Shown one piece after another: positions 3,052-63,107 of a stretch of DNA of 64,000 nucleotides. The DNA comes from a virus. The notes below the pieces were generated by a model. It was not told the origin of the DNA, searched no databases, and saw only the letters and a program-made list of their open reading frames with translations. The position numbers and the translations under genes were made by a program. Location: positions 46,387 through 110,386 of IMG/VR virus record IMGVR_UViG_3300046804_004438. The stretch is one strand, 5' to 3'. The first letter of the stretch is position 1; each line of letters opens with the position of its first letter.

Positions 3052-3293
3052 ATATGAAGTCTTCCTGACTTTCTGACAAGGTTTAGATTCTCTGCCTCTA
3101 GTTGTAGCTTTGCCTTGAGAACAGTACTTTGTTTAATAATAGATGCAGCTGTCTCTACCTCGATGTTGTTTGTCTCACAATAGTGAACGACGGCATCAAC
3201 ATATGACAGACCATTGAGACCTGCTATCCTATCAATCTCTTTTACAAATTCTGAAACAAACTCAGATGATGATTTTACTTTACCTATTCTCAT
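3048..3293 (-). CDS. 33: T4 gp33-like late transcription coactivator
   Basis: YVDAVVHYCE.NNIEVE...LKAKLQLEAENLN motif; synteny with genes 59 and 32. Confidence 0.9.
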   Translation of the reverse strand: MRIGKVKSSSEFVSEFVKEIDRIAGLNGLSYVDAVVHYCETNNIEVETAASIIKQSTVLKAKLQLEAENLNLVRKSGRLHI

Positions 3294-4456
3294 GAATCCA
3301 ACTTCTTGTATGCTAGGGTTACATTTGTTCCACCAAAACCAAATGAATTGTTGAGAACAACATTTTGTTTTTTGTTTAATAGAGATATGGGAAGAATAAT
3401 GTTTAGTGAAATGGTAGGATCTTGTTGATCAAGATGCCAGTTTGGAATTACACTATTGGTCTCTAGTGATGTTATACATGCAAGTGTTTCTATTGCACCA
3501 GCTGCTCCAAATAAATGACCATGCAATGATTTAGTAGAGCTTACAGGAATATTATTTGTATGACTACCAAACAACTGCTCTATGCTTTGAAGTTCGACAA
3601 GATCACCCATCTGTGTTCCTGTACCGTGTGCGTTGATATATGTAACATCAGAAAGTTCAAAGTCTTTGATCGATTGTTTCATACATTGAACCTGACCTTC
3701 AACATTAGGTTTAGTTACAGACTCGCTTCCATTTGATATTCCGTAACCAACGATCTCACAATATATCTTTGCACCTCTATTAACTGCACTATTATATTCC
3801 TCTAGTACGAATATAACAGAACCTTCTGACATTGTAATTCCATCTCTGTTCTTAGAAAATGGCTTACAATCAGAACTCAGTGCACCCATTGCCTTCCAAT
3901 AAGCAAACTGCAACTGATTGATGCATGCTTCGGAACCTCCGGCAACCAATACCTTGTGCTCACCATATGCAATCTTCTTATATGCTTCACCAATTGCAGT
4001 AGAAGAAGAAGAGCATGCTGTGGAGTATGTTATTGCAGGTCCTTTGATTTGATCTTTGAGTGCAATGAAGTTTGCACCCATGTTAACAACTGAACAAACC
4101 AATGCTGTTGGTTTGACCTTGCCTTTTGCAAATAATGATCTGTAAGCTTCTTCATATGCTAATGCACCACCACCATATCCAACACCAAGAAATATACCCT
4201 CTGGATAGTTGTTACTATCAAAGATTGCATCCTTATACGATAACCATGCTAGTCTTGTAAATCTGTCTGTTATGTTTAGATCATATCTATCAAAGTGCTG
4301 ATCAATGTGTGTAAGTTGATCTACGACATACGCACTACTATCAAATTGATCTACTTTTGAACCTTTAGTACCATTTAGAAAACTATCTCTGACTGTTTGA
4401 TAGTTGTTTCCTAAAGGTGTCCTACAACCAATACCAGTAATAACTACTCGGTTCAT
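3290..4456 (-). CDS. Beta-ketoacyl-ACP synthase (FabF/NodE-like)
   Basis: RVVITGIG, catalytic TACSSS, NAHGTGT, KSLHGH and NSFGFGGTN motifs. Confidence 0.93.
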   Translation of the reverse strand: MNRVVITGIGCRTPLGNNYQTVRDSFLNGTKGSKVDQFDSSAYVVDQLTHIDQHFDRYDLNITDRFTRLAWLSYKDAIFDSNNYPEGIFLGVGYGGGALAYEEAYRSLFAKGKVKPTALVCSVVNMGANFIALKDQIKGPAITYSTACSSSSTAIGEAYKKIAYGEHKVLVAGGSEACINQLQFAYWKAMGALSSDCKPFSKNRDGITMSEGSVIFVLEEYNSAVNRGAKIYCEIVGYGISNGSESVTKPNVEGQVQCMKQSIKDFELSDVTYINAHGTGTQMGDLVELQSIEQLFGSHTNNIPVSSTKSLHGHLFGAAGAIETLACITSLETNSVIPNWHLDQQDPTISLNIILPISLLNKKQNVVLNNSFGFGGTNVTLAYKKLDS

Positions 4457-5489: not shown

Positions 5490-6187
5490 ACGTCATACCT
5501 TACCTTATATTGATGCCTTACTTCTAGTAATTGTTTAACAAAATCATCTCTTCTATCTTCAAACACTTGTGGTGTGTCACCATCGACAGATATGAGAATT
5601 ACAATTCTATTTACTGGTATCTGAAATCTTTCTTCATACATTATTGCATATGCTGCAGCCTGGCAAAAATAGTTTGTAATATAATCTCTATTCTTGTGTT
5701 TTGTTGCAGTCTTGAAATCTATAATAGATAACTTACCTTTCCATTCTGCAACACAATCTACTGTTCCTGCCATTTGTAAGAAGTCAGAATATAATCTAGT
5801 TTCTTGCAAATGAATATTATCAATATAGTTATCAAGAAAAGGTTTTATCTCTCCAAAATTAATTGTATCATTATAATTATATTTACTTGAATCTATTTCT
5901 TCGTTGTCAAGATATTTCTCAAACAACTCATGCATGCGAGTCCCACGGACAGATGCCTTTGAACTTATCTTATTGGCTTCTTCGTTTCCTACTCTTTGTC
6001 TCCATTGTTGAATTGACTTTTCATTCATCAATCCTGTAACCGTTGTCACCGATGGATAAAGGGCACCGGTAGGTGACTTATAATACCTACCGGTGTCTGT
6101 ATTTACTTGTTCTAGAACTTCTTCATCAAGGGTCTTTTTGAGATGTGTGAAGTGCTTGCGCTGGGCTAAAATGTCCTTGAGTTGCAT
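5486..6187 (-). CDS. PD-(D/E)XK exonuclease (Cas4-like phage exonuclease)
   Basis: YPSVTT, RGT.MH, AGTVD, IIDFKT and Q..AYA motifs. Confidence 0.88.
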   Translation of the reverse strand: MQLKDILAQRKHFTHLKKTLDEEVLEQVNTDTGRYYKSPTGALYPSVTTVTGLMNEKSIQQWRQRVGNEEANKISSKASVRGTRMHELFEKYLDNEEIDSSKYNYNDTINFGEIKPFLDNYIDNIHLQETRLYSDFLQMAGTVDCVAEWKGKLSIIDFKTATKHKNRDYITNYFCQAAAYAIMYEERFQIPVNRIVILISVDGDTPQVFEDRRDDFVKQLLEVRHQYKVRYDV

Positions 6188-6926
6188 TATGTACTATTCC
6201 GTTTTCTATCATATTCTTTTTAATTATAAAGTCTTTTACTAGCCCAGATCTAACAATATCATTTTCATTAAATTCTATACATGAGAAGTACTTAGGCATC
6301 TTATTAAGTATCTTCATGAACTTATGAATGCCTTCTCTTTCATCATCCCATTTTAGATCAGTCTGTCTATAATCTCCACAGAAAATAATCTTTGAACTTT
6401 GACCTACACGAGTAATGATTGTATTTAATTCTTGATATGTCATGTTCTGACATTCGTCGACAATTATGATTGTATTGTCTAGTGTGAGGCCTCTAAGGAA
6501 AGATGAGGTCTCAAAATTTATCATACCTTTTTGTTTTAGGATTTCGTATGCATCGCCTCTGTTGAATAACTCTGTACAGATAGCTTGGTATGGTGCTTCA
6601 TATACTTTTGATTTATCTTTTATTGATCCTGGAAGGAATCCCATATCGCGAGAAGGGACTACGGAGCGAATTATTGTAACACTGCTATAATCTCTATACT
6701 CTTCTATTTCTGATAATGCAAGGTAAAGTGATATGAACGATTTACCCGTACCTGGAAGACCATGAATAAGAAGATGTTTACCGTTTATAAATTCTTTAAA
6801 TACTCTCTCTTGATTTGCTGTCTTAGGTGTTACTGTTTTAAGTTCGAGGTTATTTTTATTTTGTCTTTGCTCCTGACGCTTTTGTTGCTTTAGTAGTCTT
6901 TTTTCTGCGCGGGATAATCTTTCCAT
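6126..6926 (-). CDS. phoH: PhoH-like ATPase
   Basis: Walker A GLPGTGKS, MGFLPG, FLRGLT, DECQN, GDYRQTD; start reassigned to MERLS after GAGGTG RBS. Confidence 0.93.
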   Translation of the reverse strand: MERLSRAEKRLLKQQKRQEQRQNKNNLELKTVTPKTANQERVFKEFINGKHLLIHGLPGTGKSFISLYLALSEIEEYRDYSSVTIIRSVVPSRDMGFLPGSIKDKSKVYEAPYQAICTELFNRGDAYEILKQKGMINFETSSFLRGLTLDNTIIIVDECQNMTYQELNTIITRVGQSSKIIFCGDYRQTDLKWDDEREGIHKFMKILNKMPKYFSCIEFNENDIVRSGLVKDFIIKKNMIENGIVHNATQGHFSPAQALHTSQKDP

Positions 6927-46204: not shown

Positions 46205-46819
46205 TTATTGTTTAACCCAATACCAGACATTGTCTCGGCATGTTGCAATTGGAGGATAATTACCTTCTGATCTAAATTTATTTAGAGCAGAATTTACTGC
46301 CTGCATTCCATAATCATGGCCTGAAAAAATTCCACCTTTTCTCACTTTAGGATAGAAATTTTTACAATCTCTGTATACAGATTCTTCTGAATGATCTCCA
46401 TCTATAAAAATATAATCTAAAGATTCATCGGGATAATCACCTAGAATGTTTTCACATCTATCTTTGATAAGTAAAATTCTACCTTCAAATTGTTTTGTAT
46501 TTTCAATAGCTGCTTGATGTTGTGCTGACAGAATATCTTCACCAACAAAAGTATTCCAATCCTGAAAAGGAATATATGGATCTACTCCAATCAGATGAAG
46601 ATTGGGTATATTGCTTAAAAAATTATAAATGTTCCATCCACTAGCTACTCCTATTTCCATTCCAACTATTGGAGTGTTAATATCAGGGGATAGTTGTTTA
46701 ACAACATTAATCAAATCAGGAGCAGAAAAATATTTTTTACTTTCCCATTCATTTCTATCTATAAGTTCAGAAATCAACCAAGGATAAAGTTCTGATGTAG
46801 GGTTGTCTATCACACTCAT
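46205..46819 (-). CDS. Class I SAM methyltransferase (Methyltransf_24-like)
   Basis: EIGV, FIDGDH and GGIFSGHDY motifs. Confidence 0.85.
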   Translation of the reverse strand: MSVIDNPTSELYPWLISELIDRNEWESKKYFSAPDLINVVKQLSPDINTPIVGMEIGVASGWNIYNFLSNIPNLHLIGVDPYIPFQDWNTFVGEDILSAQHQAAIENTKQFEGRILLIKDRCENILGDYPDESLDYIFIDGDHSEESVYRDCKNFYPKVRKGGIFSGHDYGMQAVNSALNKFRSEGNYPPIATCRDNVWYWVKQ

Positions 46820-59985: not shown

Positions 59986-61404
59986 TTAGTAATCGTAGCG
60001 ATCGCTCATGATTGTCTTCAACATGATTGCTTCTGGTGTGAATGATGACAAGTCAGCAGACAACACAGACTTAACAATCGCTGGTGAGAAACCAGATACA
60101 AGAGCAACACCACGTTCGTCAAACTTAGCAGGAACGTTGTCGTGTGCATTTAGATTCCAGAACACAATGTTTGGCATTGCATAACCAGCTTCTGCATACT
60201 TACGTGCAATCATTTCCATTGCAGAGTTATCATATCTGACACAAGCATCGAACTGCATGTCTGACAAGATCAGAAGGTTCTGTGGCATTTCTTCCTGAGG
60301 AACATTACCGTTAACTGCAACATCCAGGATCTTCTGAATTGCTAAATGAAGGTTAGTATTCATCTCCCAATCAGAAGACTTCATCTGATTAACCTTATCA
60401 ACAATGTTACCCTTGAGGTTAACAAGTTGTGGCTTTGCAGAGAAGGTCAAGAAAGTATCCTTGAACTTACCCTTGTTCTTGTCTGCAAGATACAGACCAA
60501 GAGATACTGCAACATCAAGATGAGACAGATCGCTGTTCTTGCTCACACGTGAGGTCATAGAACCTGACACGTCAACAAGAGGAAGGATAGAACCATCACC
60601 AACATAGTTAGGAAGTGCATCCCACTGTGCAATGATATGATTCTTGTTCTCTACTGAGTAACCACGATAGTCGTTAAGACCCTTGATAACATCATAAGGA
60701 TATACTGCACCAGCATTAACCTTGACAGTAGATGATACAGAAAGGTCCTTAGAAACAAGAGCAGTTACCCACTCCTTATACTTGTCAGTATGACGAGCAA
60801 ATGCCTTCTTGTAACGAGCTGATGCAACAGATGGTACGTGATTGAAATTGATGTTATCCCAATCCTTTGCACACATCTGAGTCTCAACAACCTGTGTTAA
60901 CTCAACCAGACGCTTACGGTAGTACTTTGGAGACCAACCACAATGTGCACGAAGCTTTGCAGCTACTTCACCCTGACGAGGCATCCACTTAGCACAGAGA
61001 CCATTACCGGCATCAAGTGCTTCGTGAATCATTTTAAATGCTTCATCCTGAAGGCTAGTACCAACAAGAGCTAATAAATCATCCCAACGACCAAGCTCAG
61101 GAACCTTTGTCATCAACGCACGAGCGCGAGATTCGTCAGTGTTAGCAAGATCAACGAGAATATCACGAAAGATCTTACGCTCACCCGCACCACCACGAAC
61201 ATCACGTGCCCAAAGTGCAACACGACCGGCAAGGTCAGCATCGACAATACGAGCAGCAGTCCATTCAGGGATTACGTTCTTACCACGCATCGCACCGATC
61301 TTGAAGAACAAGTCAGTAAGAGCATTACCAGTACCAGAACGAGCCTTCATACCATTCTCTGTACGAGCTTCCTGGTTAATCACAGCGTTAACAAAAGTAG
61401 ACAT
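59986..61404 (-). CDS. Ro60-like TROVE + vWA protein (DUF2828 type)
   Basis: RD.RGG.GER, GRWDDL and AKW.PR in the helical part; MIDAS DVSGSM, SDMQFD, FWNL and SGFSP in the vWA part. Confidence 0.85.
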   Translation of the reverse strand: MSTFVNAVINQEARTENGMKARSGTGNALTDLFFKIGAMRGKNVIPEWTAARIVDADLAGRVALWARDVRGGAGERKIFRDILVDLANTDESRARALMTKVPELGRWDDLLALVGTSLQDEAFKMIHEALDAGNGLCAKWMPRQGEVAAKLRAHCGWSPKYYRKRLVELTQVVETQMCAKDWDNINFNHVPSVASARYKKAFARHTDKYKEWVTALVSKDLSVSSTVKVNAGAVYPYDVIKGLNDYRGYSVENKNHIIAQWDALPNYVGDGSILPLVDVSGSMTSRVSKNSDLSHLDVAVSLGLYLADKNKGKFKDTFLTFSAKPQLVNLKGNIVDKVNQMKSSDWEMNTNLHLAIQKILDVAVNGNVPQEEMPQNLLILSDMQFDACVRYDNSAMEMIARKYAEAGYAMPNIVFWNLNAHDNVPAKFDERGVALVSGFSPAIVKSVLSADLSSFTPEAIMLKTIMSDRYDY

Positions 61405-61420
61405 TTCACTTCTCCATTAT

Positions 61421-61853
61421 TCTACAGATTGAACTTTTTTTGCTATTTCAAAAGCTTTAGGTTGCGGTAGTCAATCTAAATTCAACAGGATCATCTTTTG
61501 TGCTATTAGCAAGCATTTTTAATAGTTGCTGAACTGATCCTTAATTACTCATATTATTATATTACTGTATCTTTGATATTAAATCAACAGGATCCGCTTT
61601 CTGCTTTTTCCCAAAAAAAGTGCCTAAAAGGCGAGAGTTGCTGTTGGGATCCTTAAACTAAATTACTACAGGATAGTTGTTAGAGTTTTTTTAATTATCG
61701 TCTAGATCACGTAATTCTAACAACTAGACTATCTATGTTACAACCACATAACAGGTTGACGAATTATTAGTTCGCCGAGGAGAGTCGACAAGCGACTCGT
61801 TGGTGAGGCATGAAGCCCCTGGCTTTATTAAAGCGTATGCAGTAACTATCCTT
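61421..61853 (-). ncRNA. Array of four related stem-closed small-RNA units
   Basis: Each unit starts AG(G)ATnnnnnC(A/C/T)GCA and ends with the complementary ...AT(C)CTGT; stems differ between units but stay paired. Confidence 0.7.
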
Positions 61854-61858
61854 AAACT

Positions 61859-61935
61859 TGGTGGGTGATGAGAGACTCGAACTCCCGACATTCTGCGTGT
61901 AAAGCAGACGCTACTACCAACTGAGCTAATCACCC
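61859..61935 (-). tRNA. tRNA-Val(TAC)
   Basis: Cloverleaf, loop TTTACAC, CCA encoded. Confidence 0.95.
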
Positions 61936-62627: not shown

Positions 62628-62703
62628 TGGCACCGGTGGTAGGAATCGAACCCACGCTTACAGAGTTTTGGAGACTCCAGCTCTACCCCTGAGCTACACC
62701 GAT
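62628..62703 (-). tRNA. tRNA-Trp(CCA)
   Basis: Cloverleaf, loop CTCCAAA, GCCA end. Confidence 0.92.
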
Positions 62704-63107
62704 AATCTATTATTATAATGTAACTTTCTATGACAATTGGAACATAGAACGATACATTTAGATATTTCCTTAAGTACTATTTCTCTAGATACTCTATTAG
62801 AAATTAATCCAGAAACTTCTAAATCCTTTTGATTGGGATCTTTGTGATGAAAATCTAAAACTGCTATATGACTTTCATCACATTGTTCGCACTTAAGTGA
62901 ACTCTTTATCTCATAGAACCAATCTAGATATATTTTTCTGTATTTTTTAGATGAATTTATATAATCTTGTTTGTTTTGTAAATAATGTTTTTTATTCTTT
63001 AATTTGTGACATTCTTTACAATACCTTTCAAGTCCATCTTTATTAGAAGATTTTTTATTAAACATTGTAATATCTTTTAATTGTTTACATTTACTACAAG
63101 TTTTCAT
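62694..63107 (-). CDS. Zinc-finger HNH homing endonuclease
   Basis: CSKC/CKEC, C..C, DFHH.DP and LCSNCHR motifs; TATAAATA at 63128. Confidence 0.85.
   Translation of the reverse strand: MKTCSKCKQLKDITMFNKKSSNKDGLERYCKECHKLKNKKHYLQNKQDYINSSKKYRKIYLDWFYEIKSSLKCEQCDESHIAVLDFHHKDPNQKDLEVSGLISNRVSREIVLKEISKCIVLCSNCHRKLHYNNRLSV

Follow-up and report, generated by a model that had tools for sequence, protein, structure and literature searches.

The closest described counterparts of the system reported here are the Ro60 proteins and their Y RNAs. Ro60 proteins hold Y RNA on their outer surface and take 3' ends of RNA into the central hole. What Ro60 contacts in a Y RNA is mainly the 5' strand of its terminal helix, and the RNA genes adjoin the protein gene (PMC4201824). 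The Ro-binding motif is GGUCCGA in vertebrates and GNCGAAN0-1G in bacteria; among bacterial Y RNAs at least one per genome has a permuted tRNA-like domain, and RNAs of the YrlA type are RNase P substrates (PMC4201824). In phages, the Ro60 protein of Thermus phage phiLo binds two upstream Y-like RNAs, Yrl1 and Yrl2 (PMC12135203; PDB 9KOP, 9L5Y). With this set of systems (Deinococcus Rsr-Yrn1; the YrlA and YrlB RNAs of Salmonella and mycobacteriophages [RF02553; Chen et al. 2014, PMC4201824]; and phiLo) we compared a locus in IMG/VR virus record IMGVR_UViG_3300046804_004438, in which four repeated units, U1 to U4, stand in front of a gene for a Ro60-like protein of the DUF2828/DUF7788 type. The record is a contig of 110 kb, estimated to be about 68% complete, and the stretch analyzed (the window) is the 64 kb from position 46,387 to 110,386. 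Taking the comparative sequence evidence together, we think it quite probable that the four units are small non-coding RNA genes partnering the neighboring protein, the whole being a divergent counterpart of the Ro60/Y-RNA pair.

Two Ro60-like phage proteins have already been reported. gp130 of Bas63 (Felixounavirus), which is Ro60-like by structural comparison, is encoded directly upstream of a tRNA block and is needed to counter the Ppl defense (PhageMaP preprint, PMC11482910). CKA15_055 of the P100-like Listeria phage CKA15 is Ro60-like by HHpred, and unannotated regions near the tRNA genes of that phage are very highly transcribed (PMC12282133). That RNAs encoded nearby might be Y RNAs is a guess made in both papers, neither of which identifies the RNAs.

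The units of the window lie on the minus strand between a tRNA-Val gene and the protein gene (Table 1) and share a common plan: (A/U)AG, an arm of 7-9 bp, two to four bases, the sequence C-N-G-C-A-(A/U), an interior, the complementary arm, and CUGU. The arms differ in sequence from unit to unit, each being paired with its own complement, and the interiors share nothing. The motif reads CAGCAA in U2 and U3, CCGCAA in U4, and CUGCAU in U1. We call the closing helix with this motif the handle. Inspection of the sequence found all four units within 1-3 nt of the minus-strand places given in the original prediction, which was also correct for every unit in describing a conserved C(A/C/T)GCA(A/T) motif and closing helices that differ yet remain paired.

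Are the units real? Loose pattern finders that looked for GCA with a helix returned some 100 false pairs from the window, and were replaced by a motif test and a covariance model. In the motif test, the 5' motif [AG]G[AG]NT-N5-YNGCA was searched alone, without presupposing pairing, and a match was said to have a partner if an exact reverse complement of its first seven bases, plus G, occurred within 425 nt. The window contains 15 matches on its two strands (10 minus, 5 plus). An exact partner was found for four of the ten on the minus strand, these four being U1 to U4, and for none of the five on the plus strand. The covariance model of the handle, R1, scored U3 at 60.6 bits, U2 at 50.7, and U4 at 43.8 (the last only with filters off); as U2-U4 belong to its training set, only the absence of other matches is informative, and nothing in the rest of the window exceeded 11 bits. 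A scan of the whole 110-kb record likewise returned U2, U3 and U4 alone. R1 cannot span the 160-nt interior of U1, so that this unit rests on the motif and complement test and on its fold (-52.3 kcal/mol, z -4.1).

The units extend the tRNA operon with tRNA-like spacing, 12 tRNA genes being present in the window. No terminator-like site was found between tRNA-Val, the units and the gene. A promoter scan of this AT-rich stretch gave only weak, ambiguous sigma-70-like sites, and no promoter is claimed. U4, the last unit, abuts the ribosome-binding site of the gene.

Table 1. Features of the array in the window, and matches to the handle model R1 in distant phages (all on the strand of the gene for the Ro60-like protein)
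Feature	Position	Strand	Score	Description
tRNA-Val(UAC)	61859..61935	minus	Rfam tRNA 62.5 bits	ARAGORN; ends 5 nt before U1
U1, 186 nt	61668..61853	minus		AAG; 9-bp closing helix AGGATAGTT/AACTATCCT; diverged motif TTACTGCAT; long multi-hairpin interior; CUGU; ends 5' AAGGATAGTT...AACTATCCTGT 3'
U2, 68 nt	61587..61654	minus		AAG; 7-bp helix AGGATCC/GGATCCT; motif CAACAGCAAC; two small hairpins; CUGU; ends 5' AAGGATCC...GGATCCTGT 3'
U3, 58 nt	61485..61542	minus		AAG; 7-bp helix AGGATCA/TGATCCT; motif GTTCAGCAAC; variable interior; CUGU; ends 5' AAGGATCA...TGATCCTGT 3'
U4, 55 nt	61424..61478	minus		UAG; 7-bp helix AGATTGA/TCAATCT; motif CTACCGCAAC; hairpin with UYGAAA-type loop; CUGU; ends 5' TAGATTGA...TCAATCTGT 3'
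Shine-Dalgarno GGAG of Ro60-like gene	61412..61415	minus		8 nt past the CUGU of U4, 7 nt before ATG
Ro60-like protein gene, 472 aa	59986..61404	minus		ATG at 61404, 19 nt past the CUGU end of U4; DUF2828 N-terminal helical-repeat ring and C-terminal von Willebrand factor A (vWA) domain (DUF7788)
Cyanophage BUCT-ZZ01	directly upstream of gene	gene strand	53 and 23.5 bits	
Listeria WIL-1	directly upstream (L084 2159-2315; genome 6496-6652)	gene strand	E 2e-6 and 7e-5	
Campylobacter Los1	directly upstream	gene strand	E 3e-3	
Bacillus PBC2	directly upstream	gene strand	E 2e-3	
Enterococcus EFDG1	upstream	gene strand	E 0.06	marginal
Staphylococcus S-CoN_Ph11	directly downstream	gene strand	E 7e-5	
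Mycobacteriophage Rumpelstiltskin	directly downstream	gene strand	E 1e-3	35 nt after gene; candidate RNA at genome 41414-41477
Klebsiella FBKp34	directly downstream	gene strand	E 4e-4	two weaker matches besides
Ralstonia RSP15	~1 kb downstream	gene strand	40.8 bits, E 4.5e-9	after tRNA genes
Felix O1	~0.5 kb downstream (L082 4380-4451; genome 24033-24104)	gene strand	E 3e-3	between tRNA-Met and tRNA-Asn

The handle recurs in front of close relatives of the gene. We fetched 80 IMG/VR loci encoding relatives of the protein (55-78% identity), 68 of which are distinct. Within 1.7 kb upstream, on the gene strand, these 68 loci have the 5' motif 173 times, and an exact partner is present in 152 of the 173. 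A control in which the complement was not reversed gave no partner for any of the same 173 matches; the opposite strand has 56 motif matches, and again no partner. Positions that were not selected for are kept as well, namely a U-rich 5' flank, U at +2 (78%) and +3 (75%) past the helix, and the motif itself (C90 A74 G C93 A A75). Alignment A1, of 52 short units, has G8, T11, C17, G19, C20, A21, C83 and G85 as invariant columns, and the G8-C83 pair is likewise invariant. Pairing in the A1 helix is 87.7%, 7 of its 10 pairs show double changes, and the covariation score is 0.536 against 0.193 for shuffled data; since the units were chosen by having at least seven paired bases, the first seven pairs are paired by construction and these counts lean towards structure. 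RNAalifold predicts the closing helix independently in the subfamilies of U2, U3 and U4, with compensatory changes. U2 orthologues (L001, L003, L011, L013) keep the helix and both inner hairpins, U3 orthologues (L002, L005, L006, L007, L009) show a compensatory G-C/A-U change in the helix, and the U4 orthologues of eight loci show C-G/G-C and A-U/G-C changes.

In the related contigs the arrays consist of one to seven units, arranged head-to-tail upstream of the gene, and the gene is mostly found within a tRNA cluster. Median unit length is 96 nt, and many units are of 50-65 nt. The interiors, which range from 34 to 367 nt, are widely different while the handle is kept, and this fits the interchangeable payloads that had been proposed for the window units. 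Of 56 related loci, 45 have a last unit that stops 11-35 nt short of the start codon. When the U1 interior was compared by blastn with the fetched loci no relative was found, and the four units compared with all loci gave only handle and short subfamily matches. Peculiar to the window array are the lack of a tRNA-mimic unit, the 186-nt unit whose body has no relative among the fetched loci, and the placing of the last unit against the ribosome-binding site.

Members of the protein family are encoded in 711 of 50,697 phage records, always at less than 60% identity to the window protein; the carriers include Felix O1, P100/A511-type Listeria phages, Staphylococcus and Enterococcus phages, T4-like Vibrio and Aeromonas phages, and mycobacteriophages. 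Fifteen distant lineages were scanned with R1, and the matches beside or near the gene are listed in Table 1. When whole genomes were scanned, WIL-1 (134 kb) gave two matches, both just upstream of the gene, and Rumpelstiltskin (69 kb) a single one, beside it; in S-CoN_Ph11 and Felix O1 the best matches adjoin the gene. Aeromonas phage phiAS5 has good matches 11 kb from its gene. T4, T5, SPO1, phiKZ and RB32 (870 kb in all), which have no homologue of the protein, gave nothing below E 0.05 (best E 0.06), although three of them (T4, T5, RB32) have tRNA clusters. Eighteen distinct matches from 12 distant phages were aligned (A6). Their seven core pairs are about 100% paired, double changes occur at all 10 pairs, and the covariation score is 0.727 against 0.221 for shuffled data, the pair counts leaning towards structure here also because A6 was fitted to the model. 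As judged by these sequence comparisons, the handle co-occurs with the Ro60-fold protein in phages of five host phyla. The original prediction had staked itself on an association of the motif with this gene family in other genomes; such an association was found upstream of the gene in the 68 related loci and beside or near it in distant phages.

These scans also bear on the two reported proteins. The position of gp130 is like that of the Felix O1 gene, and that of CKA15_055, downstream of tRNA genes, is like that of the WIL-1 gene, orthology being inferred in both cases from genus and gene position. Where the two papers guessed at RNAs, candidate RNAs are now defined, with handles in the gaps between tRNA genes of Felix O1 and upstream of the WIL-1 gene.

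Is the protein a Ro60? Pfam assigns it to DUF7788 (4e-49) and DUF2828 (1e-15), with a weak VWA_2 match (E up to 1), and gives no match to TROVE at E up to 1. It matches PHROG 850, 'RNA-binding protein' (1.4e-140), and has 6,160 relatives among 1.84 billion representatives of 50% identity clusters. Given the lone sequence, AlphaFold2 produced an unusable model (predicted local distance difference test [pLDDT] 37); given an alignment of 78 sequences (77 relatives), it produced one with a pLDDT of 90.8 and a predicted template modeling score (pTM) of 0.89. A Foldseek search of the PDB with this model returned full-length Ro60 structures at all of ranks 1-13, over about 500-560 aligned columns, with E from 2.6e-9 to 1.3e-4 and template modeling (TM) scores of 0.46-0.66. 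They comprise phage phiLo (9KOP, 2.6e-9; 9L5Y), Xenopus (1YVP, 1YVR, 2I91), human (9NEN and others) and Deinococcus (2NVO) proteins; below rank 13 come vWA domains alone, with TM scores of about 0.25. Sequence identity to the solved Ro60 structures is just 13-18%, and phmmer and hmmsearch against the PDB reached Ro60 chains only at E 0.1-1, in the region of the MIDAS (metal ion-dependent adhesion site), which is not significant. The MIDAS motif DxSxS (D278/S280/S282) is invariant in the 78 family members. The predicted structure is thus that of a Ro60 fold, in a branch that has diverged beyond the reach of the TROVE profile and of sequence searches of the PDB. The earlier designation of the product as a Ro60-like, TROVE/vWA protein stands in so far as it concerns the fold (the 13 top PDB matches) and the invariant MIDAS; the TROVE part does not, that Pfam profile being unmatched. 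The ESM Atlas returned only viral DUF2828 clusters and is uninformative about eukaryotic relatives.

CKA15_055 was detected in purified virions of Listeria phage CKA15 (20 peptides, 57% coverage; PMC12282133), and the homologue in Salmonella phage 7t3 is annotated as 'structural protein'. The Ro60-like protein may travel in the particle and be delivered together with the DNA.

How far does the likeness to Ro60 and Y RNAs extend? The systems have in common a ring plus vWA fold with a MIDAS, and RNA genes on the same strand beside the protein gene. Like Y RNAs, the units have paired ends, a conserved motif on the 5' strand just inside the helix, a variable second module, and several RNAs for one protein. 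Unlike Y RNAs, they have fixed ends, (A/U)AG and CUGU, and most are short and without a tRNA-like domain; unlike the known Ro60 loci, up to seven units stand head-to-tail in tRNA operons, and the protein is of the DUF2828/DUF7788 and not of the TROVE type. Parts of tRNA do occur in the interiors of relatives, where T-loop sequences are the commonest 7-nt hairpin loops and the T-loop motif is found in 49 of 175 distinct units. A unit of L001 (2564-2677) can be aligned to YrlA through the T arm, the loop-closed acceptor stem and the D arm (37.2 bits, E 2e-6 in a small search, where the gathering score is 69), and a unit of Klebsiella phage FBKp34 (L095, ~3188-3310) is of the same build, a permuted tRNA body on a CAGCAA handle. 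No YrlA match reaches the Rfam gathering score in 20 related loci. The proposal of Y-RNA-like units next to the gene is thereby supported by comparative genomics, that is by the related arrays, the distant phages, the gene-less controls and the sub-threshold YrlA bodies. We use 'Y RNA' for how the units probably work, by analogy, and not for family membership; neither the protein nor the units are called curated members of TROVE or YrlA, because the defining sequence features were tested and are lacking. A description of this RNA family is found neither in Rfam 15 nor in the literature searched. In the Rfam search of L011, the Rhizobiales small RNA Atu_At1, unexpected in a phage, scored above gathering (70.8 bits against 60) at 6087-6193 on the minus strand, opposite to the gene strand and by a tRNA gene.

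Other systems that place an RNA array or a structured RNA by a protein gene were considered and rejected. In type III toxin-antitoxin systems (ToxIN) an array likewise precedes the protein gene, but ToxI consists of near-identical 36-nt units that are cut by the toxin, an endoribonuclease, whereas the window units differ in length and interior, with only the handle in common, and the window protein has a Ro60 fold without a nuclease domain. A CRISPR-like array or a retron RNA does not fit either: the units differ from one another, as identical repeats would not, and neither a nuclease nor a reverse-transcriptase domain is present in the protein.

Several results weigh against reading the array as partner RNAs of a Ro60-like protein, among them the failure of the TROVE profile and of the PDB sequence searches, and the lean towards structure that is built into A1 and A6. 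Single-sequence folding of U2-U4 is weak (z -1.0 to -1.5, no better than shuffled sequences), and because of these z-scores the evidence for the units is comparative, not thermodynamic. The handle motif, (U)U(A/U)CAGCAA, is not the GNCGAA or GGUCCGA of Y RNAs. The Rfam comparison proposed with the original prediction gave no match of any family, Y_RNA (RF00019) and YrlA included, to the window units at E up to 10, and a T-loop motif or tRNA-like module is absent from all four, in a record that is about 68% complete. In Cronobacter phage GAP32 the R1 matches lie about 200 kb from the gene, and three DUF2828 phages (Vibrio 6E35-1b, phiM12 and a Twort-like phage) gave no R1 match.

That said, the array would be accounted for by the following scheme. 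The units would be co-transcribed with the tRNA operon and the gene, as suggested by the absence of a terminator between them, and host RNases would cut them out of the AU-rich or U-rich spacers. The mature RNA would span (A/U)AG to CUGU, its ends pairing in a 7-bp helix and (U)U(A/U)CAGCAA coming after this helix as a single-stranded stretch of the 5' strand. The shared handle would be the putative binding site of the protein, by analogy with Ro60 and the 5' strand of the terminal helix, while the variable interiors would supply different bodies by which the ring protein is tethered or gated towards different RNAs and enzymes of host or phage. With the last unit lying in the leader of the gene, by the ribosome-binding site, the protein may also set its own translation. 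By analogy, a role in RNA surveillance or in counter-defense during infection is likely; counter-defense is a lead because Bas63 gp130, the homologue of Felix O1 type, is reported to counter Ppl (PMC11482910).

The handle also resembles an RNA family from eukaryotes. The Class I RNAs found in dictyostelid amoebae measure 42-65 nt, begin with AAG/G, and have a variable interior (Kjellin et al. 2021, PMC7919456). Their 6-bp terminal stem varies in sequence with compensatory changes, they end in CUGU, the C of which pairs with a conserved 5' G, and beside the 5' arm they carry an 11-nt motif, CCUUACAGCAA, in which T3, C6, C9, A10 and A11 are nearly fixed (PMC7919456). In the supplementary code of that study the motif is given as CCTTACAGCAA, an example being GTTGAC-CTTACAGCAA...GTCAAC-TG (PMC7919456). 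Class I RNAs were reported to be unique to Dictyostelia, to have a DUSE promoter about 60 nt upstream, and to be bound directly by Rnp1A, a protein with an RNA recognition motif (PMC7919456). U2-U4 (55-68 nt) are of about the Class I size and U1 (186 nt) falls outside it. The G8-C83 pair that is invariant in A1 answers to the Class I pair between the 5' G and the C of CUGU. All four window units end in CTGT, as Class I RNAs do, U1-U3 starting with AAG and U4 with TAG, and terminal stems that vary with compensatory changes are found in the phage units also (A1 and A6). On a feature-by-feature comparison, positions 6-11 of the Class I motif (CAGCAA) are matched by U2 and U3, while positions 1-5 differ in the window; some distant phage units carry UUACAGCAA or UAACAGCAA exactly. 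The phage units differ in belonging to an operon continuous with tRNA genes, whereas Class I RNAs are single eukaryotic transcription units with a DUSE promoter, and no report connects Class I RNAs with a DUF2828 or Ro60-like protein. DUF2828 proteins are reported from plants. An Arabidopsis candidate (Infernal score 40), which has the stem GTTTTC/GAAAAC and ATTACAGCAA and ends in CTG, was dismissed by the authors of the Class I study (supplementary file 56 of PMC7919456). The phage CAGCAA-handle RNAs and Class I RNAs might form one family whose ancestral partner was the DUF2828 branch, the phage arrays being a set of exchangeable adaptors or decoys, in the form of tRNA bodies and anticodon-like loops, which point the ring protein at different host RNA enzymes or defense nucleases; as a whole, this extension strikes us as rather unlikely.

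Could the array be something other than a set of partner RNAs? The units, or at least the last of them, might be cis-acting leader elements, the protein binding the handle in its own 5' untranslated region and the upstream copies serving as operators or decoys. This would suit the short distance from the last unit to the start codon in most related loci and from U4 to its GGAG, the lack of a terminator between units and gene, and several relatives (L017, L022, L023) in which a single short unit stands between a near-consensus TTGACA/TATAAT promoter and the ribosome-binding site. On the other side, the units of Staphylococcus, Mycobacterium, Felix O1, Klebsiella and Ralstonia phages are downstream of the gene, among or just before tRNA genes, and those of phiAS5 and GAP32, 11-200 kb away, cannot be leaders; it is difficult to see operators in arrays of up to seven units that have tRNA-like bodies, and U4 RNA alone does not sequester the ribosome-binding site. 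We consider a purely cis-acting role possible but doubtful, and note that an autoregulatory leader function may well be compatible with partner RNAs. That the handle is instead a processing or stability signal of phage tRNA operons, used for instance by RNase P, RNase E or a nuclease of the phage and not bound by the protein, appears distinctly improbable. The tRNA-like spacing of the units directly after tRNA-Val, their U-rich spacers, the frequent location of the gene in tRNA clusters, and the cleavage of YrlA-type RNAs by RNase P (PMC4201824) would all agree with it, but T4, T5 and RB32 have tRNA clusters and no match below E 0.05, the best genome-wide match of Rumpelstiltskin and of S-CoN_Ph11 abuts the gene with no tRNA found in the stretches fetched, and strict conservation of a single-stranded CAGCAA in hosts from five phyla is more than a pure processing signal would require.

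The interiors invite a further explanation, that they are decoys of anticodon loops which soak up host anticodon nucleases. After T-loops, the commonest 7-nt loops include CUUAUAA, CUUGUAA, CUUGAAA, CUCAUAA and CUUCUAA, of the form C/U-U-NNN-A-A, U1 has a 6-bp stem with the loop CUAAUAA, and the combination of a Class I-like handle with tRNA parts suggests tRNA-related partners. Against this, orthologues of U2 and U4 drift between 5 and 8 nt in loop size and keep only UUGG(G)A or UYGAAA, which misfits a strict 7-nt loop, the U3 subfamily has G at loop position 2, and YU-NNN-R-N is nearly as frequent on the reverse complement (0.20 against 0.23), so that AT-richness explains much of the signal; we regard decoys as improbable. 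As for chance inverted repeats in AT-rich intergenic DNA, to which the unremarkable folds of U2-U4 and the many false pairs of the loose pattern finder might point, the compensatory conservation in 68 related loci and 12 distant phages, the bias in strand and position, and the controls leave them a negligible probability, and on these comparative data they are excluded.

Some neighboring features deserve mention. Inside the tRNA cluster of the window, by tRNA-Trp, tRNA-Phe and tRNA-Gln, an open reading frame at 62694-63107 (minus strand) encodes an HNH endonuclease (PHROG 2255, 1.6e-33) that is probably a homing endonuclease. Genes of RNA-repair type are close to the Ro60-like gene in several distant phages: an RNA ligase lies directly upstream in GAP32 (L090 4-1269), an HD protein and a 'tRNA splicing ligase' of the RtcB type lie downstream in WIL-1 (L084 5350-6503), and a macro-domain (Appr-1-p processing) protein upstream in phiM12 (L091 208-771). 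RtcB and two RNA ligase families were sought in the 110-kb record, which is about 68% complete, and none was found, the control for one family giving no signal. In Klebsiella phage vB_KpM_FBKp34 a 114-nt annotated tRNA-Asp (L095 3503-3616) has a handle-like insertion after the D arm, consisting of the hairpin AACTTCT/AGAAGTT and then TTACAGCAT; it looks like a whole tRNA with a built-in CAGCA motif. Flanked by tRNA genes of WIL-1, and some 1 kb upstream of its Ro60-like gene, is a strong though sub-threshold match to ROOL RNA (L084 971-1522, NC_025440.1 5308-5859; 87 bits, E 2.4e-16, where the gathering score is 99.1), over which tiny open reading frames have been annotated. This stretch may correspond to one of the highly transcribed unannotated regions of CKA15.

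DUF2828/DUF7788 proteins are among the more widespread phage proteins without a defined function. With the array described here, candidate partner RNAs are now defined for a protein family that two papers had guessed to work with Y RNAs (PMC11482910, PMC12282133). The match to Class I RNAs could supply a candidate protein partner and an origin for those RNAs; if the two do form one family, Class I RNAs would be the Y-RNA equivalents of the DUF2828 branch. If the protein does bind the units, the Ro60/Y-RNA principle would extend to a second, much larger protein branch with a recognition motif of its own, and that branch would have a modular, array-encoded RNA repertoire.

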